Shown: positions 10,724-64,000, counted from the first letter of the stretch. The stretch is DNA of 64,000 nt from Alphaproteobacteria bacterium (GCA_964291215.2 OZ219791.1:960001-1024000); one strand, 5' to 3'. Notes: generated from the sequence alone by a model not told the origin. Made by a program: numbers and translations.

Positions 10724-11877
10724 CAGTAGGACCGCGGCAGTCCGAGCACGTGCTCGCCGACGAATGACAGGACCAGATTGTTGGAAATCGGCGCGATCCG
10801 GTAGAGCCGGGTTTCCCTGAACTTGCGCTCGATGTCGTACTCTTCGGCGAAGGCGAAGCCGCCATGGGTCTGCATGCACATGTCGGCGGCCTTCCACGAG
10901 GCCTCGGAGGCGAGGTACTTGGCCATGTTGGCTGCCGGGCCGCAGGGCTCTCCGGCCTCGAACTTCCGCGCTGCCTCCTCGACCATCAGGTTGGCCGCCT
11001 CGGCATGCATGTGGGCTTCGGCGATCGGGAACTGGATGCCCTGGTTCTGGCCAATCGGGCGGCCGAAGACGTTGCGGTCGCCGGCATAGTCGGTAGCCTT
11101 GCGGATGAACCAGCGGGCATCGCCGATGCATTCGGCGGCAATCAGTATCCGCTCGGCGTTCATCCCGTCGAGGATATAACGGAATCCCCGGCCCTCCTCG
11201 CCGACCAGCGCGTCGGCCGGGAGGCGGAGGTTGTCGAAGAAGACCTCGGTGGTTGCGTGGTTGATCATGGTGCGGATGGGCTTGATCTCCATGCCGTTGC
11301 CGCGTGCTTCGCGCATGTCGACGATGAACACGGACAACCCCTCGGTGCGCTTCACGACCTCGGCGGCCGCTGTCGTCCGCGCCAGCAGCAGCATCAGGTC
11401 CGAATGCTCGGCGCGCGAGGTCCAGATCTTCTGGCCGTTGACTATGTATCCGGAATTGCCTTCCTTCACCGCCGTGGTGCGCAGGCTCAGCGTGTCGGTG
11501 CCGCTCGTCGGCTCGGTCACGCCAAAGGCCTGGAGGCGAATGTCCCCGGACGCTATTCCGGGAAGGTAGGCTTGTTTCTGCTCTTCCGAGCCGTGTCGCA
11601 GGATCGTGCCCATGATGTACATCTGGGCGTGGCAGGCAGCGCCGTTGCAGCCGGACTTCTGGATTTCCTCCATGATCACCGACGCCGCCGTGAAGCCGAG
11701 GCCGGAGCCTCCGTAGCGCTCGGGGATGAGGACGGACAGGTAGCCGGCTTCAGTCAGGGCGCGGACGAATTCCGTGGGGTAAGAGCGGTCGGCGTCGAGC
11801 CGGCGCCAATACTCGCCGGGAAAGCGTTCGCAGAGCCTGCGCACCTGTTCGCGGATGTCGGCATGAACTTCGGTCAT
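10723..11877 (-). CDS. acyl-CoA dehydrogenase
   Basis: FPGEYWRRLD, RLQAFGVTEPTSGTDT, NGQKIWTSR, GMNAERILIA, HGGFAFAEEYDIERKFRE, LGLPRSY. Confidence 0.92.
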   Translation of the reverse strand: MTEVHADIREQVRRLCERFPGEYWRRLDADRSYPTEFVRALTEAGYLSVLIPERYGGSGLGFTAASVIMEEIQKSGCNGAACHAQMYIMGTILRHGSEEQKQAYLPGIASGDIRLQAFGVTEPTSGTDTLSLRTTAVKEGNSGYIVNGQKIWTSRAEHSDLMLLLARTTAAAEVVKRTEGLSVFIVDMREARGNGMEIKPIRTMINHATTEVFFDNLRLPADALVGEEGRGFRYILDGMNAERILIAAECIGDARWFIRKATDYAGDRNVFGRPIGQNQGIQFPIAEAHMHAEAANLMVEEAARKFEAGEPCGPAANMAKYLASEASWKAADMCMQTHGGFAFAEEYDIERKFRETRLYRIAPISNNLVLSFVGEHVLGLPRSY

Positions 11878-12158
11878 GTTCGGCACCTTTCGATTTCGGC
11901 GCGATGGCGTGGACATGGTCCGATAAGCGCAGCCGCCTGCCGCGGCGGCGAAACGGTCCCGAAACCACCGTTGCGCCATCCTTTTCTGCGTCGATTTCGA
12001 TGAACGACCGTTGCGCCGAAGCAATACGCCAATGCCCGTTCGATGGCAAGTTCAGATGTCCTGATCTCGTGAGTTGACTTGATCCGTCCGGCCTCCCTTT
12101 TTTCCAACACAATCAACGATTTTCCTGGTTTTTTCTTGACAACGTAGCCGCGCGATGG

Positions 12159-12342
12159 CAGGGCTCTTCTTTTGTCCGGTTTCGTCCGACGAGGGGACGT
12201 TGTAGGCAGATCAGGAGGTCCATTCAGGAGCGGATTTCGTTGTCGATATGCCGGTTTCGACCTTGAGACGGTGCCACCAACTTCAAGAACGGCCACTCTG
12301 ACACGGTTGTCCGCCTTCGATCGCGACAACAGAATGGTCCTG
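12159..12342 (+). mobile_element. 184-bp MITE, family A copy 1
   Basis: Imperfect TIRs CAGGGCTCTTCTTTTGTC / CAGGACCATTCTGTTGTC. 10-bp TSD CGCGCGATGG at 12149-12158 and 12343-12352. Near-identical inverted copy at 37710-37892. Confidence 0.85.
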
Positions 12343-12461
12343 CGCGCGATGGCGCGATATACCATGATGCCTAGAATTGGATGGCCCAGGCCATGAACCA
12401 CGACGATCCCATCCCAAGTTGGCACTTTTTGTGTTAGTGTAGTGTCCCGCAAATAAGTGTC

Positions 12462-12690
12462 CCCCGTTCCATAGTGAAGTGCAACACATGATGGGCTGTG
12501 GCCATGTGTTTTAAGACGCATGATGTTGCGGAGCGGTAGCGGCGAGAGTTCCTGTACAAGATGAAGGGAGCTTGTTCATGTTCAAAGGTTACCGTCACCT
12601 ACGAAGAGCGATGCCAGATTGAGGCAGAAAAGCGGTTTTTCACAAGGTGCGATTGCTCGGCAGCTGGGCCGTGGTCGATCAACAATTTTC
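12462..12690 (+). pseudogene. IS30-family left end and transposase N-terminal HTH relic
   Basis: End motif TTCCA...TGAAGTGCAACA shared with 24067. Frameshifted MFKGYRH.TYEERCQIEA...SQGAIARQLGRGRSTI, cut by an IS66 end at 12691. Confidence 0.65.
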
Positions 12691-13051
12691 GTAACTGCTC
12701 ACCCCCTGGTTCCGGCTTGATGTCGGGGTAGAGCAACAAACGGGTTTTCGTGGAGATTTGACACTGCAGATCGATTCGGTTAGTGTGAACTTCTTGGGCT
12801 ACCTCCGCCAAATCCTGATCCTGGCTGAATGTCACGGCCACATCGAGAGCGCCGTTGCGTGCCATTCGCACCATGTCGAGACCAATCCGAAGGTCTGTTT
12901 CCTTCTCGCGCTGTGCCGGCACACCATGCGTCGTACCGTCCGGAAGCGGGACCCACTCGGAGCGCGGTTTCCGGGAGGTCACGAGAATCCCGACGCGGCT
13001 CATTGCGGTCAGGCACCGCGCCCGGCACGCCGGATCTTTCCTGGCGTCGGG
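12691..13051 (+). mobile_element. IS66-type left end carrying an antisense NYN (LabA/DUF88) gene fragment
   Basis: Begins GTAACTGCTCACCCC plus about 90 bp of end sequence shared with the other copies. The minus strand (~12785-13050) reads QREKETDLRIGLDMVRMARNGALDVAVTFSQDQDLAEVAQEV, an NYN-type EK.D..I.LD / FSQDQD motif pair. Confidence 0.7.
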
Positions 13052-14224
13052 GCATCTCCTCACCCCTCCGCAGAGGCGGGTTTGGCGTTGTGCATCTTGA
13101 TCATGTCGGCGGCGAGTGCGATCCGGATGGCGACGAGCGGGCTGTAGCCGAGTGCGGTCATGGAGGTGAGATAGCTTGAGCTTCGGCACCAGGCCTCGGC
13201 TAGAGCGGGGTTCGGAAGCATCCGGACACCTTGATCCTGACCTTTGCCATCCGGATTTTCTGCTCGCCGGTGTTGTTGGTGAAGCTGACGTCCGGGTCGC
13301 TCATGAAGCGCAGGACGGACTCTTCATGCCTTGCGAGACGCTCCTGGAGGTTGTGCGCGTTCGCGATCGGTCCGCGTTTTCCTTTCTGTCGGGGCGGGAT
13401 TTCAGGCAGTTCCTTCGCCCCCCGGGTCAGGATGGTCCGGTAGCGCTTGCGCCCGGCCTCGTTCAGGGTCCTGGATGCGCTCTTGTCAACCCTGTGGCAG
13501 GCAGCAGTTTCTTCATCACGCGCGCCCGGCGGTAGCCGTTGGCGTCGACGATGAAGGTCAGTTCCGTCGCGGTAGAAATGCGCATTGCTGCCCCCCCGGC
13601 CTTGCGCTTGATGCGCTGACGGTCCGTGCGGTTCCGCCCGGGCTCGAAGTTGAGCCACACCACCTCGGTGCGGACCCGGGTCGTCACCTGCACGGCGATG
13701 CGGCGCCAGTCCCGCAGCAGGTCGTCGTACAACGCCGAGGGGCGGCCCGAGACCATCACCTGACACGGCAGACCCTTGAGCAGTTCAAGGAGTTCGACAT
13801 GGTCGGCTTCGGTGTAGTCGTGGCGGTACCGCCGGCCCGACCGACGGGTCGCCTGCAGGGATCACTGCAGACCAGTTCCGTGCCCCGGAACGCAAAGCCG
13901 GCCAGGAACGCGTGGGTGCAGCCGTGGATCAGTTTCACCGGATAGTCGCACCCGAACCCGTCCAGCGCTCCCGGTCGATCCCGATCGAGCGCCGGCGCCT
14001 TGCGCTTCATCAGCGCGCCGCCTCCCGGATGTGTTTCCACATACAGATCATGCGGGAGCTGGAGCCCCGGAAGCAGCTGGCACAGCCCGCTCGTCGCCTT
14101 CGATCCAAAGTAGCCCACTGGCGGTCCCCGTCGTTCTCGATGACCACCACTGAACGAATTGGCCTGCAGTGTCAAATCTCCACGAAAGCCCGTTCGTTGC
14201 TCTACCCCGACATCAAGCCGGAAC
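13052..14224 (-). mobile_element. eroded MTase-carrying IS66 element, copy A (MTase pseudogene plus tnpC 3' fragment)
   Basis: MTase GYFGSKATSGLCQ... with five small deletions relative to the intact copy. tnpC residues SFTNNTGEQKIRMAKVRIKVSGCFRT. Degenerate right end GCATCTCCTCACCCC at 13052. Left end truncated by IS256. Confidence 0.85.
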
Positions 14225-15350
14225 GATTACGCAACCTGATGTCTGGAAATTGTCGTGAAGCTGTCAGTCATCAAGCTGTTCCCATTTGATCTTGGTTTCG
14301 GTTTCCCATTTTTCGTCGATGAGGACTGCGGTCGAGAGGCGCTCCAACGAGGTGAGGTTCGGAAAGACCCTGACTTTGGAGGTGCGCCGCTTGAGTTCTT
14401 GCTGGATCGGTCGCTCGATGCCGTTCGAGGTTCGCATACGTTTGCGGTGAGCATCGGGCAAGGTGAAGACAGCGAGCCCCGCATTGTTTTCCAGCCAGGA
14501 AGCCTGGATGCTTGTCGCTGGCCACGAGGGCGCCCAGTTCAGCCTCGGCGGTTTGGAGTGAGGAGGCGTGGCTCCGAGCTGTTTTCCAATACGTTTCCTG
14601 ATGTCGTTGTTCGGTGCACGGCGTTTTATGCCAGGTGGAACTGGCAGTGCTGCCACGTCGCCGCGCCCAGCACCGTGCCGCTTTCAGCCCGGCATCCGAG
14701 ACGATGAAGGTCGTACCATGCAGGGCTAGCAAGCTTTCCAGGAAGGCTCTCCAATGGACCTCGGCCTCGGAGAGCGCCACAGAGAGCCCCGGAACGTGCC
14801 TGCAGCCCCTATTCCGATGGCCGAGAGTACCGCGACATCGCGCACAACGCCGTCATGGCGGGCTTTTTCATAGCGCGCATCCAGGTATTTCATCAGGGGG
14901 CCGGTTGCGCGGCGAGTTCTTCATCGAGCAACCTGGTGGCCCGGCTGACCTGAGAAGAGGACAGGCTCCCGAACTCGCGCATTACATCCTGCCGTGTGGA
15001 AACACCCTTGATGTACATCTCGGCTACGGCGCGAGAAGATCGCTGGCCGCGTTCAAGCGACTGGGGACGGATCGTCCCCGTGACCGTTTGGCACCTGAAC
15101 GGTAACAGTGGGGGTGTCGATCCGCTTGTAGCCGTTGGCATAGCCCTGTCGTTCCGGTGGCCTGCTTTCAAGTGCTGCTCGCGCTCGATTTGCATCGCAA
15201 GCTCGAAGAGCTGACCAAAGATCCGCCCCAGATCCGTTGCTCCGTTTGCGATCAGATGTTCCAAAACGGCCTCAATCGTCGTAGTGTGTCGCAGGTCCAT
15301 TCGCTTCCTCCATGAATGTTTACAGCTCCATGGGATAGCACGATGGCGCC

Positions 15351-17354
15351 GCGTTTCACTGGGGGGCTAGCCCTCGCATGTCACGGAAATTTTAGCTGGA
15401 CAACGGTGTTTCGGCGTGGCATAAGTGTCCCATGTCACAGATCAGCCGCACATTGCGGGACGAGGCAGCAGTTGCGCGGATCGCGTCGCTGCTGTCCTGT
15501 GAGCAGTTCGACAGCCGGTCGGCTCTGGGTCGTCTGCGAGGAGTTTGCCTTTGTCGACGCGCGCGGCCGTCTGCAGCTTGCCGGCTGCATGAAGGCGCTG
15601 AGGGCGCCCGGAGATCGTCCTGCCGGTGCCGAAGTCACCGACAATCGACCGCCGGCCTCGCCTGTTGGTATCGCTGCAGAGGTTCCGGCGCGCGCATTCG
15701 GGATCTCGAGATCATCGTGGTCGGGGATCGTATTGACCGAGCGGTCACGCTGATTGCGCGTGAACACCCGCGACGACCTTCGCCGGCTGCCAATATCTCG
15801 TGGGCTCGGCGCACGGGTGGCGGGGTTTGCCGCCGCCGCGCGGCGCGGGACCGCTGGATGGAACGACGGGCAGCGCCGGAACCACCTGCAGCGGATCGTC
15901 TGTCTGAGCCGTTTCTTGATCAGGTGCTCTGCCCGCCCAGCCATGTGCGCATCCTGCGCCGCGTGACTTCGAGGACCGTTTCGACCATGGCTCAGTTTTG
16001 CCGATGAAGGTTACCCTGCCTGCGCGCGGCCAACTTCCTGTGCAGGACCGAAGGCCGGCAGGACTGGGAGACGGTGAAGACGGTCTTCGTGGCCGAACTG
16101 GAGCGCGCAGGAAGCTGGGGAGGTCGATCATGCGCCCTCGCCGGGCGAAGGTCTGAACGACTGGGCGCAGAACGAGTTTGGAGGGGGGTGACAAGCGACT
16201 TTCTGCGCGCCTGGAGCGCCAGCCTTCTGGCGGCCGGTCAGAAGATCAATGCGTCTCCCAGCGCCGACAACACCGCGATCAATGCGTTTTACCGGATGGT
16301 CGCCCTCGGAGATCACGCCGGCGAACATTCTTGCGCCGCACCGTGAGCGCAGCATCCGGCGCATCCGTGGCCAGAAGACGGTTCTTGCCGGACGGCACGG
16401 ACCTGAACTTCTCCCGGCCTGCAGGTGAGAACCAGACCGGGGCCTCAAGCCTGCACGCGACCCTGGCGGTGACTGACCTGCCACTCGGGGTGCTGGGTCC
16501 GGTGAAGCCCCGGTCGCAGGAGACACGCCGCAGCTCGAGGGGTTCAAGGCGCTGCCACCCCGGCGGCAAGACGCGCGTCATCTCCGTCGGGAAGCCGACA
16601 TCTTCGAGCTGTTCGACACGCGCTTGCCCCGCGTCGATCTGCGCGCCAAGCATGACAGGGTGCTGAAGGAGGGAAGGCTGTTCGCCGTCATGGCCGGCGG
16701 CCTGATTGAGATCGAGGGACTGACGGAGCAAGCCAGCCGGAAGAAGGCCCGCGCGACAGAAGCGCCTGGCGAGTTGCGGTCCGTCACCCGTGACGGGCAC
16801 CGCCTCCAGCGCGAAGCCGGTGTCCCTGCACGGGGTCAGGGAGCGCCCGAAGGTGAGGATCCCGTGGTGCCTGCTGACCACCGTGCGGGTCGGCGAAGGA
16901 GGCGGCCGACATCGTCGGCTTCTACCTTCAGCGCTGGCGAATCGAGGATTACGTGCTCAAATCCGGATGCAGGGTGGAACACCTTCTGTTCCGCACCGGC
17001 TGCAGCGGGCGATCAACGCCGTCATCGCGCATCATGGTCATGACCCTGCTCGGCCGCCAGGTGCGAGCCGCAGCTGATGTTCACCGACAGCGAACTCGCG
17101 CGACTACGCACACAAGTACGCCCTGAAGGAACCGGAGCGTCTCGCCGATGCGGTGCACCTGGTCGCCCATCTCGGCGGCTACCGCAGCACGCCCGGGTCA
17201 CCAGATCATGTGGCCAGACACACCAGCGCCGCACTGGGTCACCAAATCGGCCGGGAAATCGGGTTCCGGGATGGACAAAGACACGCGTGAACACGTAAAC
17301 CATTGTCAACCAGATTTGTCATGACACGGCAGGGCTAGCCCCCCAGTGAAACGC
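15351..17354. repeat. 36-bp perfect palindrome GCGTTTCACTGGGGGGCTAGCCCCCCAGTGAAACGC in the IS256 leader, split by the IS4 insertion
   Basis: Arms at 15351-15372 and 17341-17354 rejoin after removing the IS4 element and one TSD. A half-copy is present at 24554-24579. Confidence 0.85.
15373..17332 (+). mobile_element. IS4-family (Tn5/IS50-like) element with N-terminal DUF4338 region, eroded, copy 1
   Basis: MSQISRTL...SRSALG..VCEEFAFVDARGRLQLAGCMKAL, GWNDGQRRNHLQRIVCLSRFLIR, GDKRLSARL, WCLLTT, LQRWRIEDY.LKSGC. 8-bp TSD GGCTAGCC. Imperfect TIRs CTCGCATGTCACGGAAATTT / CTGCCGTGTCATGACAAATC. Confidence 0.8.
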
Positions 17355-17542
17355 CTCAAAGCGCAAACCTCAGACAAATTTCCAGACATCAAGTTACAGT
17401 ACCTCGAGGGGGAGGGGGGGTAGCCCGGCATCACCTCTCTGCCGCGCTGCCTTCCGATTTCGCGTCCGCTTCCGGATCGGCCGCCGGACGCCCGCCTGCC
17501 GTTTGTGATATGATTCTGGCCTTGCCATCCGGAGGTCTCGAC

Positions 17543-18718
17543 ATGCCTGTCATCAACCGCATCGCCGAATTTCACGAGGAGATGGTCGCCTGGCGACGGC
17601 ACATTCATGCGCATCCGGAAACCGCTTTCGAGGAACACCAGACCTCCGATTACGTGGCGCTTCGCCTCCATGAATTCGGCGTCGATGTCCATCGCGGCCT
17701 CGCCGGGACCGGCGTCGTCGGAACGCTGAAGGGAAACCAGGCAGATGGCCCGGCCATCGGGCTCCGCGCCGACATGGACGCTCTCGACATCGAAGAGAAG
17801 AACGAGGTCGAGCACAGATCGCAGAACCCCGGCAAGATGCACGCCTGCGGGCATGACGGACATACCGCGATGTTGCTCGGCGCGGCCAAGTATCTCGCCG
17901 AGACGCGAAATTTCGCCGGGACCGTGCACTTCATCTTTCAGCCCGCCGAGGAGAACGAGGGCGGCGCCGAGGTCATGGTGCAGGACGGCCTGTTCGAGAA
18001 GTTCCCCGTCGAATCCGTCTACGGAATGCACAACATGCCCGGCATTCCGGTCGGTGAGTTTGCCGTGCGGTCCGGGCCGATCATGGCGGCGTTCGACCTG
18101 TTCGAGATCAACTTGGCGGGAACCGGGACCCATGCCGCGACGCCGAATCTTGGCCGCGACGCCATCGTGGCCGGCGCTCAACTCATTACCGCGCTTCAGA
18201 CCATCTGCAGCCGCACGACCAGCCCGTTCGATGCGGCGGTGGTATCGGTCACCCAGATGCATGCGGGCAGCACTTGGAACGTCATTCCGGAAGAGGTCGT
18301 GGTGCGGGGCACGGCGCGCGCCTTCAGCAGCCGTGTCCAGAGCCATGTCGAGGCCGAGATCCGGCGCATTGCAGACGGCGTGGCGCAGACTTTCGCCGTC
18401 GCCGCCGAGGTCCGCTACGAGCGCCGCTATCCGGCGACCGTGAACACGCCCGAAGAGACCGGCCTCACCGCCGACGTCGCACGGGAAGTCGCCGGTTCGG
18501 GCAAGGTGTCGCTCGACAAGGATCCGATGATGGGGGCAGAGGATTTCGCATTCATGCTGAACGAGAAGCCGGGCGTCTACATGTGGATCGGCAACGGCCC
18601 GCGCGACGGCGGATGCATGCTGCACAATCCCCATTACGACTTCAACGACGACATCCTGCCGCTCGGCGCAAGCTACTGGTCGCGCCTGGTCGAGACCCTG
18701 CTCCAGGACGCAGGCTGA
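17543..18718 (+). CDS. M20 aminoacylase family amidohydrolase (hippurate hydrolase-like)
   Basis: WRRHIHAHPETAFEE, LRADMDAL, MHACGHDGHTAMLL, FQPAEE, MGAEDFA, LHNPHYDFND. Confidence 0.92.
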   Translation: MPVINRIAEFHEEMVAWRRHIHAHPETAFEEHQTSDYVALRLHEFGVDVHRGLAGTGVVGTLKGNQADGPAIGLRADMDALDIEEKNEVEHRSQNPGKMHACGHDGHTAMLLGAAKYLAETRNFAGTVHFIFQPAEENEGGAEVMVQDGLFEKFPVESVYGMHNMPGIPVGEFAVRSGPIMAAFDLFEINLAGTGTHAATPNLGRDAIVAGAQLITALQTICSRTTSPFDAAVVSVTQMHAGSTWNVIPEEVVVRGTARAFSSRVQSHVEAEIRRIADGVAQTFAVAAEVRYERRYPATVNTPEETGLTADVAREVAGSGKVSLDKDPMMGAEDFAFMLNEKPGVYMWIGNGPRDGGCMLHNPHYDFNDDILPLGASYWSRLVETLLQDAG

Positions 18719-23422: not shown

Positions 23423-23899
23423 GGGTGAGAGTTTCGTATGGCACGGTTGCAGGCTCAGTACCATTTGTTCATCTCATGCGGCCAGTGCGGGGGTGTGATT
23501 TGGGCTGATGTTGTTGTTGGCTGGTGCGTCGTCTGCACCGATCATGGCCGTCCACACGCTCTCGAAGCGGCCGGCTTCGAGCAGGGCGCGGAAGGTGATT
23601 GTCCGCCGACGATGCGCCGGCGCATGCCGGGGTGTTTCATGCGCTGTGTGACGAGGGTCTTGTTTGCCGCCTCGACAATTCCCGAGCCGGTTGCTTCAGC
23701 GCGTGGTAGCGCATGCGGTGGCGATGGTTGTCGCGAAGGTGGTGCAGCGCCCGGGTCACCCTGTCGATGCCGTGGGGGTCGTGACAAAATCCTGTCTCTA
23801 AACGGGCGATTGTCACGAAAACCCGTTTTCGCCGCTGCCTCACGACCGCACAACCGTGTTAAATCAATGACTTGGATGCGCTATACGAGAACTGCACCC
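23423..23899 (-). mobile_element. 477-bp non-autonomous ISKra4/ISLre2-like element, MITE family B copy 1
   Basis: TIRs GGGTGAGAGTTTCGTATGG / GGGTGCAGTTCTCGTATAG. Perfect 8-bp TSD CTCGACAT. Retains GSGIVEAANKTLVTQRMK.PGMR...GGQ from the transposase C-terminus. Confidence 0.85.
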
Positions 23900-25964: not shown

Positions 25965-26774
25965 AGCGACGCTGCGTTGACCATCACCATCACTCGGCCT
26001 CGACGGTCATGATCGCCGCGAGCATCGCCTGGCGCTCGCCCGGCGGCATCTTCCGGTACCCCGCCGCCCAGCGGGCGGCCTTGCGCTTGATGCGCTGACG
26101 GTCCGTGCGGTTCCGTCCGGCATGGCTGGCCGAGTGCATCCGCCCGGGCTCGAAGTTGAGCCACACCACCTCGGTGCGGACCTGGGCCTGGGTCGTCACC
26201 TGCACGGCAATGCGGCGCCAGTCCCGCAGCAGGTCGTCGTACAACGCCGAGGGATGGCCCGAGACCATTACCTGACACGACAGACCCTTGAGCAGTTCAA
26301 GGAGTTCGACATGGTCGGCTTCGGTGTAGTCGTGGCGGTACCGCCGCTTCGACCGGCGGGTCGCCTGCAGGTACGGCGGGTCGCTGTAGACCAGTTCCGT
26401 GCCCCGGAACGCAAAGCTGGCCAGGAACGCGTGGGCGCAGCCGTGGATCAGTTTCACCGGATAGTCGCACCCGAACCCGTCCAGCGCTCGCTGGTCCCGG
26501 TCGATCCCGATCGAGCACAGCGCCGGCGCCTTGCGCTTCATCAGCGCGCCGCCTCCGAGATGCGTTTCCACATACAGATCATGCGGGGGCTGGAGCCCCA
26601 GAAGCAGTTGGCATAGCCCGCTCGTCGCCTTCGATCCAAAGTAGCCCACTGGCGATCCTCGTCGTTCTTGATGACCGTCACTAAACGAATCGGTCTGCAA
26701 TGTCAAATCTCCGCGAAAACCCGTTCGTTGCTCTACCCCGACATCAAGCCGGAACCGGGGGGGTGAGCAGTTAC
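25965..26774 (-). mobile_element. MTase-carrying IS66 element copy B (left TIR plus intact MTase; tnpC cut after about 9 codons by IS256)
   Basis: Left TIR GTAACTGCTCACCCC ends at 26774, with the same ~110-bp end as 62043. Confidence 0.85.
25990..26649 (-). CDS. D12/Dam-class N6-adenine DNA methyltransferase, intact, cargo of an IS66 element
   Basis: GYFGSK (motif X-like), YVETHLGGGA (motif I-like), IGIDRD, LVYSDPPY (motif IV), VMVSG, RTEVVWLNF. 219 aa from the GTG start, no frameshift. Stop TGA overlaps the next ATG. Confidence 0.88.
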   Translation of the reverse strand: MGYFGSKATSGLCQLLLGLQPPHDLYVETHLGGGALMKRKAPALCSIGIDRDQRALDGFGCDYPVKLIHGCAHAFLASFAFRGTELVYSDPPYLQATRRSKRRYRHDYTEADHVELLELLKGLSCQVMVSGHPSALYDDLLRDWRRIAVQVTTQAQVRTEVVWLNFEPGRMHSASHAGRNRTDRQRIKRKAARWAAGYRKMPPGERQAMLAAIMTVEAE

Positions 26775-26801
26775 TATTTGGATATAATATAGGAGACGCA
26801 T

Positions 26802-26869: not shown

Positions 26870-28788
26870 AGCGGCCCGTCCCGCTATCCGAGCAGGCGCC
26901 CGGAACGCGCACGCGATAATCCGGATCGATGCCGACCAAGTGCGAGCCGAAGGCGGCATGGTGAAGCTTCGACAGCGGTAGGCTGTTCTCCACGACGGGC
27001 TGGCCCATCGCCTCGTCCGCGTCGGAAACGATGTGCACCGCATCGAGAAGACGGGGTTCGCGCAGTCTCGACAGGGCGCAGCGTCCCCTGTACGCCGTGA
27101 TCACCGCTCCCGGAACGAAGCTTGGTGCAGGCACCGCTTCACGGTGGTCAGGACATGGCGGCGCTCGGACGCATTCTGCGCCGCCGCCAGGCTATCTTGG
27201 TCGAGCATGCCGAAGGTGAACCTTCTCCTTGAGTAGGCGGGATCCGATCCGGAAATGAAGCTCGGGACTATCGCCTGGTACCGGCTAGTGTTATGTCAGC
27301 AATGATATGTCGTACATTTGGTGCTAGACTGTCCGTCCATTCGGGATGGAGGTCGGAGTATGAAACGCTACGTGGTGACCCTGGACGAACGGGCAGAACT
27401 TTCGGAGATCAAGGGCTCGCACCTGTCGCAAAAGGTAATCAACGCCCTGCTTAACTGCGACGAGGGCGCGTTCAATGAATGCCAGATGACCGGGAAGGTC
27501 ATTGCCGAGATTCTGCGCATCAGCATGCGCAAAGTAGACCGGGTGAAAAAGCGTTTCGAGGGGCTGGAGGCGGCATTGGGTGGCCGGCGCCGTCCTACCT
27601 ACATGCGAAAAGCCGACGGCGTCTTCGAGGCGCGTGGCCCTGAGTTGTGGTGAACCGCCTGAGGGTTACGCGCAATGGTCGTTGCGGCTGCTGGCCGACC
27701 GCGTTGTCGAGCTTGGTTACACCGTGTCACACGAGACGGTGCGGCGTGTTCTAAAAAAAACTGCCTCAAGCCATGGCAGCGGGTGGGTGATTCCTCCTCA
27801 AGGGAACGCCGACTTCGCCACAGCGAAGGTACTCAATGTCTATCGCCGTCCCGCCGCTTTCCCCGTGGTCTGCATGGACGAAACGCCCCGACCGGCGAGA
27901 CACGGCAACCGATCGCCATGGCGCCGGGACGGGCATAACGACTACGAGTATCGACGTTGCGGTACCTGCAACGTCTTCATGGAACCCCTGGCCGGCAAGC
28001 GCATGACCAAGGCAACCGAGCGCAAGATCGACTGGGCGCAGTTCCTGGCCGACATCGCCGAGCGCTACCAGGATGCTACCACCATCACCCTGGTGATGGA
28101 CAATCTCAACACTCCCCGGCGCCTTCTATGAGGCCTACCCGCCGGACGAGGCCTTGTGGGACCGCTTCGAGTTCGTCTACACCCCCAAGCATGGCAGTTG
28201 GCTGAACGTGGTCGAACTCAACGTCATGATCCGCCTGAACCGCCGCATCGAGGTGCTACGCCGGGAAGTCGCCGCCTGGCAGGCGACCGCATTCAGGCCA
28301 AGGTGGATTGGCAGTTCACCACCGACGATGCCCGCGTGAAACTCAAACGTCTTTATTCGACATTTGACGAATGACAAGACACTAGGCGCGATCCCGGGAA
28401 AGTAGATGACCGGGACCCTGTTCTCGTACGCCGCGCGCAGCCACCGGTTGTCGGCCGCGTCCGGATTGGTGCCCATGATGGCATAGTCGACAGCCTCGCT
28501 GCCTTCGAAGATCTGCTGGTGCACATGGCGCTGGTCGTGGTACCAGACCCGACCGCCGGGTTTCGGGAAGATGGTCCTGATCGATAGCAGGAAGCGCATC
28601 TCCTTCGGCTTGAAAATGTCCCGCTGCCGATTGACGATGGGGATGCATCTGTCCTCGAAGGTGAGGCCCTGTTCGAACTCGGTCGCCCCTGTCAGGTGGC
28701 CGTGGACCTCGGATATCCTTCGAACCTGTTCGAAGGCGGCGAGGCGCATCGAAGTGTCTGCTCCGGGAAAATCGGCAAAATTCTCCAT
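26870..28788 (-). pseudogene. HNH endonuclease (predicted restriction endonuclease, COG3440-like), split by IS630 and frameshifted
   Basis: N-terminal part MRLAAFEQVR...IFKPKEMRFLLSIRT...NRWLRAAYENRVPVIYFPGIAP rejoins SRYQAIVPSFISG across the CTAG site. C-terminal part AYRGRCALSRLREPRLLDAVHI...LSKLHHAAF..HLVGIDPDY. Confidence 0.8.
27286..28384 (+). mobile_element. IS630-family element, eroded
   Basis: TIRs TAGTGTTATGTCA / TAGTGTCTTGTCA with CTAG at both junctions. A8 slippery tract near 27753. VVCMDE, MDNLNT, YTPKHGSWLN, WQFTTDDARVKLKRLY. Confidence 0.88.
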
Positions 28789-28999: not shown

Positions 29000-29511
29000 G
29001 GGTGCAGTTCTCGTATGGCGAATCCAAGTCATTGATTTAACAAGGTTGTGCGGTCGCGGGGCAGCGGCGAAAACGGGTTTTCGTGACAATCGCCCGTTTC
29101 GGGACAGGATTTTGTCACGACCCCCGCGGCATCGACAGGGTGATCCGGGCGCTGCGCCACCTTCGCGACACCGCGGCGCCAACATCGACAGGGAACCGAC
29201 CTTCTTCCGCAAGCATCGCCACCGCATGCGCTACCACGCGCTGAAGCAACCGGCTCGGGAATTGTCGAGGCGGCGACCCTCGTCACACAGCGCATGAAAC
29301 GCTCCGGCATGCGCTGGCGCATCGTCGGCGGACAATCACCTTCCGCGCCCTGCTCGAAACCGGCCGCTTCGAGAGCGCGTGGACGGCCATGATCGGTGCA
29401 GACGACGCACCAGCCAACGACAACATCAGCCCAAATCACACCCCGGCACTGGCCGCATGAGATGAACGAATGGTACTGAGCCTGCAACCGTGCCATACGA
29501 AACTCTCACCC
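29000..29511 (+). mobile_element. 512-bp non-autonomous ISKra4/ISLre2-like element, MITE family B copy 2
   Basis: Inverted homolog of 23423-23899 with its own perfect 8-bp TSD GCTGTGGA (28992-28999 and 29512-29519). Confidence 0.85.
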
Positions 29512-62010: not shown

Positions 62011-62042
62011 CCCGGAACTCCATTGAACATGGTAACGTTATC

Positions 62043-63566
62043 GTAACTGCTCACCCCCTGGTTCCGGCTTGATGTCGGGGTAGAGCAACGAACGGGTTTT
62101 CGTGGAGGTTTGACACTGCAGGCCGATTCGTTTAGTGGTGGTTATCGAGAACGACGGGGACCGGCAGTGAGCTACTTTGGATCGAAGGCGACGAGCGGGC
62201 TGTGCCATCGGAGGCGGCGCGCTGATGAAGCGCAAGGCCGGGCAGCGGAGTACCGGAAGATGCCGCCGGGCGAGCGCCAGGCGATGCTCGCGACGATCAT
62301 GACCGTCGAGGCCGGGTGATGGCGACGGGCGGCGCGCGAGGAGTTCGAAGCGGCCAAGACTGCGGCGCTGCCGGCAAGGTGGCGGAAGAGGCCGTCATCC
62401 GCGTCCTCGTCATCCTGCTCGACATCCTCATCGTCGTCCTTCTGGAGAAGACCACGCACGAGCCGAAACTCCGGTCTGCCGCCGTCACAGACGGACAAGA
62501 GCGTGCCGGAAGCAACGGTAAGGGCCCGAAGCCGAACCGGCAGATGGGCGACAACCTGCGCAAGATCATCGTCGAGGAGACGGTCGCGGCCTGCGACGCC
62601 TGCGGCGCCGACGGCCCCGTCGATCGGGAGCGCCGCACGACATCGTGTTCGAGGTCGTCGAGCGCCGCGCCGAGATCAAGGAATGCCCGAAGTGCAAGGC
62701 CCGGTTCCCCGACAACATCCCGTGCAGTACGGCATCGGCATTCAGGCCCTCGTCATCAACCTGCTGGTCGCCCAAATGCTGTCCCTGCGCCGTCGCGCTC
62801 GTGCAGGCGATCTCCGGCATCAAGCTCTCCGAGGCCTCGGCTATGCTTTCACGATGCGTCATGGGAGGAGGCTGCCGTGGCGCACCTCCTGCAACGCCCG
62901 ATGTCGACGATTTCGGATCAACGGCAAGTGGCTTCATGTCGTGGGACCCTGACGTGCAAGTTCCCGCACCGCAAGCGCGGGCAAGAGATCGGCCCGTGCT
63001 ACAAGGGCGTCCTGGGCCTCGTACATGGGCCAGTGTAGCCACCAGCTGTGCGGAGCCACCTACTGCGCGAACTGACCTTTGTCGTCGAGGCTACCGCGCG
63101 ACTGATGAAGAGCCTGCTCCGCGAAGTCTGCCACAAGATCAACAAGAGCGCATCCAAGACCCTGAACGGGGCCGACCGCCGGGCCGTGCACAAGCGCTAC
63201 CGCACCATCAGGGCGCCAAGGAACTGCCCGACATCCCGCCGAAAGGAAAACGTGGACGCAAGTCCGACGCGCACAACCTGCACGAACGTCTCGTGAAACA
63301 CGAAAACCTGCGCTTCATAGACGACCCCGATGTCAGCTTCACCAACAATGCCGGAGAACAGAAGATCAGGATGGCAAAGGTCAAGGTGTCCGGATGCTTC
63401 CGCTCCACGCAAAAGCATGGTGCCGGGGCTCGAGCTACCTCACCTCCATGGCCGCACTCGGCTACAACCCACTCGTCGCCACCCAGATCGCCCTCGACGG
63501 AAAAGCCGCAGACATCATCAACGAGCACCACGACCAATCAGAACCCAACTAGGGGTGAGTAGATAC
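62043..63566 (+). mobile_element. MTase-carrying IS66 element copy C, fully delimited but internally deleted (MTase relic plus tnpC relic)
   Basis: TIRs GTAACTGCTCACCCC / GTATCTACTCACCCC. Perfect 8-bp TSD ACGTTATC (62035-62042 and 63567-63574). MTase ends YFGSKATSGLC...RKMPPGERQAMLA. tnpC features LLEKTT..NSGLPPSQTD, CxxC pairs, QYG.GI.A, SHLLREL, FTNNAGEQKIRMAKVK.SGCFRS. Confidence 0.92.
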
Positions 63567-64000
63567 ACGTTATCATGCCCGGGGACGCTGGGCGGCAAGG
63601 TGGCCGCGCTCACGTGACCAATGGACGGCAACCCGCCGCCGGGACCACAAGCTGCATGTCGCCTCGCTCGCAGGACATCGACAAGGCGGAACCCCGGACC
63701 GTCTGTGGACAACCACGGAAAACATCGCCGCGGACACCCGCAAAAACCTTGCCAGGAAACATGGATGCTCGTTCAGGGTCTTTGATCAAGGTGATCTCAT
63801 GCTTGTTGATGTGATCGGAGTCCTGATCGCGGCGCGGGTCGACGCGTTCGAGGCTGCGATTTTGAGATTTGCTGACGCGCTGTTGCGGCGCGGGGCACGA
63901 TTGGTCGGCGTATCCGGAGCGAGCGAGAGGCCTGCCGGGCTCGAAAGCCTGCGGTTTCTGTCGGGGAGAGAGGCGCGGTCAGCCGGGTCTTGTGATTGCG

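Follow-up and report, generated by a model that had tools for sequence, protein, structure and literature searches.

Why have the dead mobile elements of this genome lost so many small pieces, and do the losses depend on their being repeated? The question is raised by positions 13,052 to 14,224 of a 64,000-nt stretch (the window, G000:C2:960001-1024000) from an Alphaproteobacteria bacterium, whose genome of 6.15 Mb lies in two contigs with about 63% G+C. This interval is the decayed end of an element of the IS66 family of insertion sequences (IS), composed of a transposase tail and a broken methyltransferase-like gene, and it belongs to a series of nested dead mobile elements at 12460-17405. 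About 29% of the window has repeats elsewhere in the genome. The original prediction held that mobile DNA is being erased here by dense deletions bounded by microhomology, perhaps through a process directed at multicopy DNA and loosely analogous to fungal repeat-induced point mutation (RIP). Our reading, to which we give a probability of about 0.4, is that deletions of 5-7 nt arise throughout this lineage by misalignment or error-prone repair and are spread among IS copies by deletion-biased gene conversion.

The 5-7-nt deletion class in the repeat families

Near-full-length copies were aligned for the IS66-derived family (F1, 93 copies), the IS256 family (F2, 64) and an IS630-like family (F4, 34), together with two families of miniature inverted-repeat transposable elements (MITEs), one of 526 nt (F5, 22 copies) and one of 216 nt (F3, 63 copies). 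All five families show many presence/absence differences of about 6 bases. Out of 204 distinct deletions, 112 measure 5 nt (26), 6 nt (61) or 7 nt (25), with a sharp peak at 6 nt, and the individual families contribute 30, 53, 19, 7 and 3 of these 112 events; other sizes are 1 nt (29), 2-4 nt (9), 8-9 nt (11) and 11-13 nt (18, including 11 of 12 nt). The IS256 relic of the window lacks nineteen segments of 5-7 nt as well as a 12-nt segment, all retained by other copies, the IS630-like family carries the same type of 5-7-nt polymorphism as the other families, and a 5-nt deletion polymorphism of the 216-nt MITE is present in 30 of 63 copies. The transposase frame is broken in all full-length copies of F1, F2 and F4 that were examined, and the small frameshifting losses that had been predicted were found through all five families. 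The alignments contain 37 insert runs unique to one copy as against the 204 deletions. For the IS256 family, the union of all alignment columns present in at least 2 of the 64 copies reads as a single open 412-codon frame of IS256 type, while the longest open frame of any single copy does not exceed 344 codons; the short alleles are therefore losses and not insertions.

Microhomology of at least 2 nt is found at 72 of the 171 distinct deletions of 2-60 nt, where random placement would give 19.6%, and is absent at 53 of them, so that the predicted bounding by microhomology describes a part of the junctions and fails for another part. The deletion contexts are not homopolymer slips, as had been foreseen. 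Base composition around the 61 six-nt deletion sites revealed no strong motif, the deleted segments being slightly AT-richer and the right flank GC-richer, and deletion starts showed no phase preference relative to the transposase frame when judged by eye. Several sites bear two or three overlapping deletion alleles. Substitutions in the families are dominated by GC>AT transitions, which is the spectrum expected under neutral decay.

Some of these data are what ordinary bacterial deletional bias would produce on old unselected DNA, the density of deletions then reflecting age and the shared descent of defective subfamilies. Deletions outnumber insertions, many of them are shared among copies, the substitution spectrum is the usual one, and microhomology is enriched as in bacterial pseudogenes, for which one survey gives 171 of 396 deletions flanked by microhomology (Danneels et al. 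2018, PMC6054270). The size distribution does not follow, since that survey describes pseudogene indel sizes by a power law, in which the smallest sizes are the most frequent and 1-4-nt events are many (PMC6054270), and in our families the 2-4-nt class is nearly absent and the 5-7-nt class dominant. Together with the comparisons with the sister genome and the linkage data given below, this makes ordinary bias an improbable explanation of the whole pattern.

The same class in single-copy DNA

Of a sister genome (G001, about 91-93% identity), 524 kb were aligned to this genome, giving 343,979 single-copy columns in blocks of at least 1 kb with 25,171 substitutions. This genome is shorter by 5, 6 and 7 nt at 12, 38 and 21 sites, respectively (71 in all), and longer at 3, 5 and 3 sites (11 in all), while gaps of 1-4 nt are roughly symmetric between both genomes. 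Few of the 5-7-nt gaps can be put down to a tandem duplication in the sister genome, and the gaps are therefore best read as deletions here. The sister lineage is without the 5-7-nt class, which is specific to this lineage; this counts against ordinary deletional bias. Polarisation of the events with an outgroup was dropped, the congeners, at 74-81% identity, being too distant for alignment of non-coding DNA.

The single-copy events resemble those of the IS families in their microhomology (mean 1.74 nt against 0.84 nt expected), and they cluster with other indels. Codon-periodic segments of 300 nt hold 21% of 57 single-copy 5-7-nt events and make up 68% of 1036 randomly chosen ones. Expressed as density, there are 0.69 events/kb in aperiodic segments (28 events; 40,457 nt; 3,847 substitutions) and 0.08 events/kb in periodic segments (14 events; 177,933 nt). 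This avoidance of coding-like sequence indicates that the events are filtered by selection, which argues that they are real. The deletion process acts on single-copy DNA too and selection purges it from genes; the strong deletion process on unselected DNA that had been proposed is borne out.

Excess in multicopy families

A full-length copy carries on average 14.1 deletions of 5-7 nt and 21.1 substitutions in the IS256 family, 23.0 and 31.5 in the IS66-derived family, and 12.7 and 19.8 in the IS630-like family; the two MITE families are lower, with 1.3 and 1.4 such deletions per copy. Per substitution this corresponds to 0.12-0.73 deletions of 5-7 nt in the five families and to 0.0073 in the aperiodic single-copy segments (about 0.015 if only half of the substitutions fell on this branch), i.e. 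an excess of about 16-100-fold. The original prediction had named a ratio that matches ordinary pseudogene decay and is equal in single-copy pseudogenes as an outcome that would refute it; the ratios found in the families and in the aperiodic single-copy segments are far apart, and the gap speaks against ordinary bias. The suggested specificity for multicopy DNA holds in that the load on repeats is far heavier, and does not hold as exclusiveness, since single-copy sites are also hit (71 against 11).

The number of distinct events gives a different picture from the number per copy. By our own arithmetic, distinct 5-7-nt events in the families amount to 0.3-0.9 of the number that the single-copy density of 0.69/kb would give over all the family DNA examined. 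An elevated rate of origin in repeats is therefore not required; it is the proportion of copies carrying each deletion that is elevated.

This bears on the possibility of mutagenesis directed at repeats or transposons, an analogue of RIP in which a guided or structure-specific nuclease with end joining, for instance, would make fresh 5-7-nt deletions in each copy. The higher density per substitution in multicopy families is what such a process would give, and so are the statistical independence of deletion sites from each other, the nearly Poisson number of deletions per copy (see below), its lack of correlation with substitutions per copy and with genomic position, and the sites with two or three overlapping alleles. 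The overlapping alleles are, however, about as many as chance provides (30 events in 1.28 kb, for which we estimate some 4 pairs), the count of distinct sites is close to the prediction from the background rate, no motif marks the sites, and the same size class occurs in single-copy DNA. With the allele frequencies and the state of the young repeats added, we consider a directed process unlikely.

Frequencies and linkage of the deletion alleles

Singletons are 9 of the 112 deletion alleles of 5-7 nt and 203 of the 322 substitution alleles of the IS256 family. The deletion alleles have a flat frequency spectrum with intermediate frequencies within families; fresh deletion in each copy should make low-rate sites, and with them singletons, common. 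There is no relation between frequency and microhomology (rho 0.04, n=112), which counts against simple slippage hot spots.

The alleles are not linked. Four-gamete incompatibility is at the shuffled level (in the IS256 family 560 of 990 deletion pairs, 0.57, against 0.62 after shuffling), r2 falls to background beyond about 25 nt within families, tree-like structure is absent for deletion and substitution alleles alike, and the few copies still holding a segment that is almost lost are not the same ones at each site. Ordinary deletional bias would have to explain the density by shared descent within defective subfamilies, which predicts nested and linked alleles. Descent from deleted master copies is rejected, because the alleles are unlinked and a divergence of about 2% allows too little time.

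Deletion and substitution profiles of copies correlate weakly (rho 0.15-0.29). Deletions per copy are approximately Poisson distributed, with a mean of 15.8 (sd 4.2) in the IS256 family and 29.0 (sd 5.5) in the IS66-derived family. An effect of age was considered and discarded, as deletions per copy show no positive correlation with substitutions per copy, and so was genomic proximity, since neither a shared contig nor a distance below 50 kb makes the deletion profiles of two copies more similar.

Methyltransferase-like copies and shared deletions

The deletions which first drew attention to the locus are those of the methyltransferase-like gene, of which three copies in the window are considered here. 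Copy A (13560-14224) differs from copy B (25990-26777) by 33 substitutions and 5 indels across 628 aligned nt. As described in the original prediction, it lacks 27 nt between TCCG/TCCG, one 6-nt CCTGGG unit, 7 nt whose loss removes the DPPY motif, another 7 nt, and 5 nt. In copy C (62040-62319, minus strand), about 450 nt are missing between two 11-nt repeats, with GCCTTGCGCTT at both ends, together with a further 50 nt.

These losses had been listed as separate events, and that part of the claim does not stand. Among 29 distinct genomic sequences bearing the body of the methyltransferase gene, the 6-nt deletion is found in 9, the 7-nt deletion destroying DPPY in 15, the other 7-nt deletion in 7 and the 5-nt deletion in 2, so that four out of the five recur in other copies and copy A alone has the 27-nt one. 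The 450-nt junction of copy C was found at 56 loci. It defines a non-autonomous derivative of about 1.65 kb, BLAST coverage along the element being about 190 copies. One copy examined has an 8-bp target duplication, CATGGCGC, and the inverted ends GTAACTGCTCACCCC and GTATCTACTCACCCC. The 450-nt loss arose once and was then amplified with the non-autonomous element, an ordinary MITE-like birth; for this junction the textbook route favours ordinary deletional bias. As four of the deletions of copy A are shared and the 450-nt junction recurs at 56 loci, the events are not independent. A practical warning follows for work of this type: indels tallied separately for every copy of a repeat family inflate the event count roughly tenfold. 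In the 526-nt MITE family (23423-23899 and 29000-29511), the predicted private deletions of 6 and 40 nt were seen, alongside others, the full series being 6, 6, 8, 8, 8, 40 and 49 nt.

Members of the IS66 family make 8-bp target duplications and have GTAA-type inverted ends and the accessory genes tnpA and tnpB. The IS66-type DDE transposase is confirmed by the profile match of the remnant in the window (Table 1) and by NF033517 on an intact relative (235.7 bits, cut-off 180). The name methyltransferase (D12/Dam type) is tentative for copy B, where DPPY is present, because its profile matches lie under the curated cut-offs (PF02086, 19.5 bits, cut-off 22; TIGR00571, 25.1 bits, cut-off 114.85). 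Copy B and the sequence at G000:C2:872152-872935 differ by 49 substitutions over 784 nt with no indel within the open reading frame (ORF, 25990-26706), the sole indel, of 1 nt, being in the terminal repeat. Because two intact copies differ by 49 substitutions and no ORF indel, purifying selection appears to act on the methyltransferase-like ORF in some of the element's copies.

An intact IS66-family element of about 2.28 kb occurs about 12 times with at least 99% identity, e.g. at G000:C1:141535-143815 (locus L125, 2036-4316), and window positions 25990-26777 and 13110-14224 are its older relatives. It carries a 230-aa ORF with weak Dam/D12 similarity followed by the 339-aa IS66 transposase to which the NF033517 match refers. 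Neither tnpA nor tnpB was seen in it; apart from the transposase, the ORFs scanned gave no Pfam match, one of them being weakly Dam-like. This would make the element a variant of IS66 whose accessory gene is unusual.

Young repeats and reality of the assembly

The young elements are clean. The approximately 12 copies of the 2.28-kb IS66 element, with at least 99% identity (over 1.3 kb), are without deletions of this type, and in a recent 4.2-kb duplication which includes about 3.2 kb of IS relics the two copies are identical. Fungal RIP consists of C-to-T transitions, is set off by the act of duplication and falls on young repeats. The RIP-like anti-transposon process of the original prediction is not supported here, since young copies and recent duplicates are untouched and single-copy DNA is not spared; the same undamaged repeats count against any repeat-directed mutagenesis.

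One further recent pair, G000:C2:157346-160016 and C1:2593603-2590938, is 99.8% identical over 2,671 nt, and its sole differences are a 5-nt indel (GCGGC, with GCG flanks) and a G/T change six bases away. This suggests complex, error-prone repair events, and the pair is possibly a snapshot of one deletion event. The composite unit covering it (C2 157346-163900), itself repeated several times, was rejected as a same-age control, being a mosaic with a hypervariable stretch. This hypervariable-looking cassette (G000:C2:158246-159445; copies in C2:1235310-1241060, C2:1842264-1846657 and C1:1250730-1247280) exists in 7-10 copies, whose sequences diverge by 12-15% and contain many small indels; the neighbouring parts of the composite unit are identical from copy to copy.

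A genome that is repeat-rich and probably metagenome-derived may also owe such a pattern to its assembly, if alleles were assigned to the wrong copies or some deletions were made in consensus building. Linkage disappears at about k-mer length, the closest named relative is a metagenome-assembled genome and contamination is estimated at 4.3%. The reads themselves argue for the alleles: unitigs built from the raw reads of three runs fork exactly at the family deletion sites with both alleles present, and have loose ends at 14518, 14674, 14693, 14885, 15067 and 15139. These are Logan contigs taken over 11500-17600, and at about 100-1300 nt inside repeats they are too short to phase a locus. Single-copy DNA, in which phasing poses no problem, has the same size class and there it avoids coding-like segments. 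Substitutions follow a biological GC>AT spectrum, the decayed IS haplotypes were kept identical across the 4.2-kb duplication, the near-identical 2.28-kb copies, which are the repeats hardest to assemble, are clean, and scrambling of alleles cannot alter the mean number of deletions per copy. Wrong phasing would also leave the size class and the single-copy result as they are. An artefact is a poor candidate for the pattern. A unique stretch was also found at small shares (0.06-0.16) in several sponge and marine metagenome runs, on which we base no habitat claim.

The IS256-type family was not found in any of the four congeners searched (0/4), and their IS66 copies are few and mostly intact.

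Proposed mechanism

In the reading we prefer, deletions would arise at the ordinary rate of this lineage, likely by replication misalignment or by error-prone repair of breaks escaping mismatch repair, and would then pass between hundreds of IS copies through ectopic gene conversion, the heteroduplex loops between copies being resolved mostly toward the shorter strand. Conversion of this kind would break the linkage between sites and bring deletion alleles, though not substitutions, to intermediate and high frequencies; its effect would grow with family size, and families that are young and uniform would be spared. Gene conversion is, on the linkage and frequency data, the likely route of spread.

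Several points weigh against this proposal. No conversion tract has been directly demonstrated, and for linkage to vanish within about 25 nt, repair patches would have to be very short or conversions very numerous. Similarity between copies is independent of contig and of distance. The assignment of alleles to copies comes entirely from the assembly, and the single-copy events are polarised by the argument that few of them are tandem duplications. The 16-100-fold excess is perhaps inflated about twofold, deletions being counted against a reference containing all segments and substitutions against the majority base. The 6-nt peak is a further difficulty. MutS is known from work on E. coli to recognise loops of 5 nt or more poorly, and this would account for the scarcity of 2-4-nt events. 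In the sister lineage, however, the same MutS and MutL genes are present without the signature, and escape from mismatch repair alone therefore cannot explain the peak.

Repair and defence genes had been proposed for inventory by the original prediction. MutS, MutL, RecJ, XseA and AddA are intact in this genome. Ku (PF02735) gave no match in this genome and in four congeners, with Bacillus subtilis as a matching control and LigD not searched, and Piwi/Argonaute (PF02171) gave none in the five genomes, control genomes matching. Canonical non-homologous end joining and Argonaute defence therefore lack parts here, and the failure to find Ku and Piwi also weakens the case for a guided nuclease acting on repeats.

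A broader formulation, which we hold as possible but doubtful, is a deletion drive dependent on copy number, in which deletions are either spread by biased conversion or remade by a nuclease sensing repeats, as a functional counterpart of RIP. Under such a drive, a large IS family would ruin itself at many times the pace of decay in single-copy junk. If the scaling with copy number stems from deletion-biased conversion as in our preferred reading, it would offer a gene-free way for IS bursts to limit themselves and, if true, would also explain the passage of IS-bloated symbiont genomes to the reduced stage. Erosion dependent on copy number is the part which would matter most if confirmed.

Relation to known systems

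Deletional bias, microhomology at junctions and birth of MITEs by internal deletion are already known. Deletional bias as given in PMC6054270 resembles the present case in the excess of deletions over insertions in unconstrained DNA and in junctions some of which have 1-12 nt of microhomology. Here the setting is likewise an IS-rich genome that looks host-restricted; the differences are the scarcity of 2-4-nt events, the dominance of 5-7 nt and a density tied to copy number. Bacterial junk is generally seen as being shed through deletional bias with a smooth size spectrum, whereas the mode found here is narrow, lies at 6 nt and is specific to one lineage, which points to a definable enzymatic cause.

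Kuo and Ochman (2009) are said to have described deletional bias and pseudogene decay in bacteria, and Clayton et al. (2016) reportedly described deletogenic replication slippage in a nascent Sodalis-allied symbiont, small deletions being put forward as the motor of early genome degeneration. Differently from such slippage, a part of the deletions studied here (the above 53 of 171) is without junction repeat, and allele frequency bears no relation to microhomology. With RIP the present case shares a multicopy DNA far more damaged than single-copy DNA; it differs in that the lesions are 5-7-nt deletions, that single-copy DNA is also hit and that young near-identical repeats are spared. Ectopic or biased gene conversion among dispersed repeats shares variants without tree-like linkage and drives one allele class to high frequency; this fits the unlinked shared variants and raised deletion alleles of our families. 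The derivative with the loss of about 450 nt keeps its inverted ends and an 8-bp target duplication, was amplified to no fewer than 56 loci and does not differ from MITE formation by internal deletion.

Our literature search, judged by titles and the openings of abstracts, did not find a description of deletion-favouring conversion eroding bacterial IS families, nor of a narrow 5-7-nt mode, of its restriction to one lineage or of a 16-100-fold enrichment per substitution in multicopy families whose alleles are unlinked.

Features of the window

The coordinates of the features are collected in Table 1.

Table 1. Mobile-element features of the window, in window coordinates.
Feature	Position	Strand	Remarks
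MITE copy, ~216-nt family F3 (MITE-A)	12460..12671		63 full copies examined
End piece (terminal ~96 nt), IS66-derived high-copy family	12690..12785	inverted relative to 14148-14224	~229 BLAST hits genome-wide
Low-copy (~10) segment	12786..13109	-	overlapped by ORF 12599-13189
IS66-family transposase, C-terminal remnant (ORF 13200-13766)	13110..13565	-	PF03050, E 9e-10
Copy A, broken methyltransferase-like gene	13594..14224	-	five deletions (27, 6, 7, 7, 5 nt) relative to intact copy
IS256-family relic (F2)	14225..15373	-	PF00872, 175.3 bits, on least damaged genomic copy
526-nt MITE family copy (F5/F6)	23423..23899; second at 29000-29511		1.9 deletions per copy (fewer)
Copy B, intact methyltransferase-like ORF (tentative name) and terminal repeat ending GGGTGAGCAGTTAC	25990..26777	-	ORF 25990-26706, 238 aa, DPPY present
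IS630-like relic (F4)	27285..28385		34 full copies; DDE_3/HTH_32 on sister copy
Copy C, methyltransferase remnant, end of 1.5-kb non-autonomous IS66 derivative (62040-63567)	62040..62319	-	~450-nt and 50-nt deletions

The nesting at the locus can be read from its joints: copy A is truncated at 14224 by insertion of the IS256 relic at 14225, and the relic is in turn split at 15373 by an element of about 1.97 kb (joints 15373->17339). The transposase remnant matches about 190 genomic copies at 77-80% identity. The repeat load of the genome is very high, with about 190-340 loci of the IS66-derived family, about 150 of the IS256 type, about 80 of the 216-nt MITE and about 65 of the IS630-like element and the 526-nt MITE. 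ORF 12599-13189 (minus strand, 196 aa), which has the IS66 end piece on one side and the transposase remnant on the other, shows a weak sub-threshold match to the NYN domain (PF01936, 19.2 bits, cut-off 24.2), and the arrangement 12691-13565 was found at about 8 loci.

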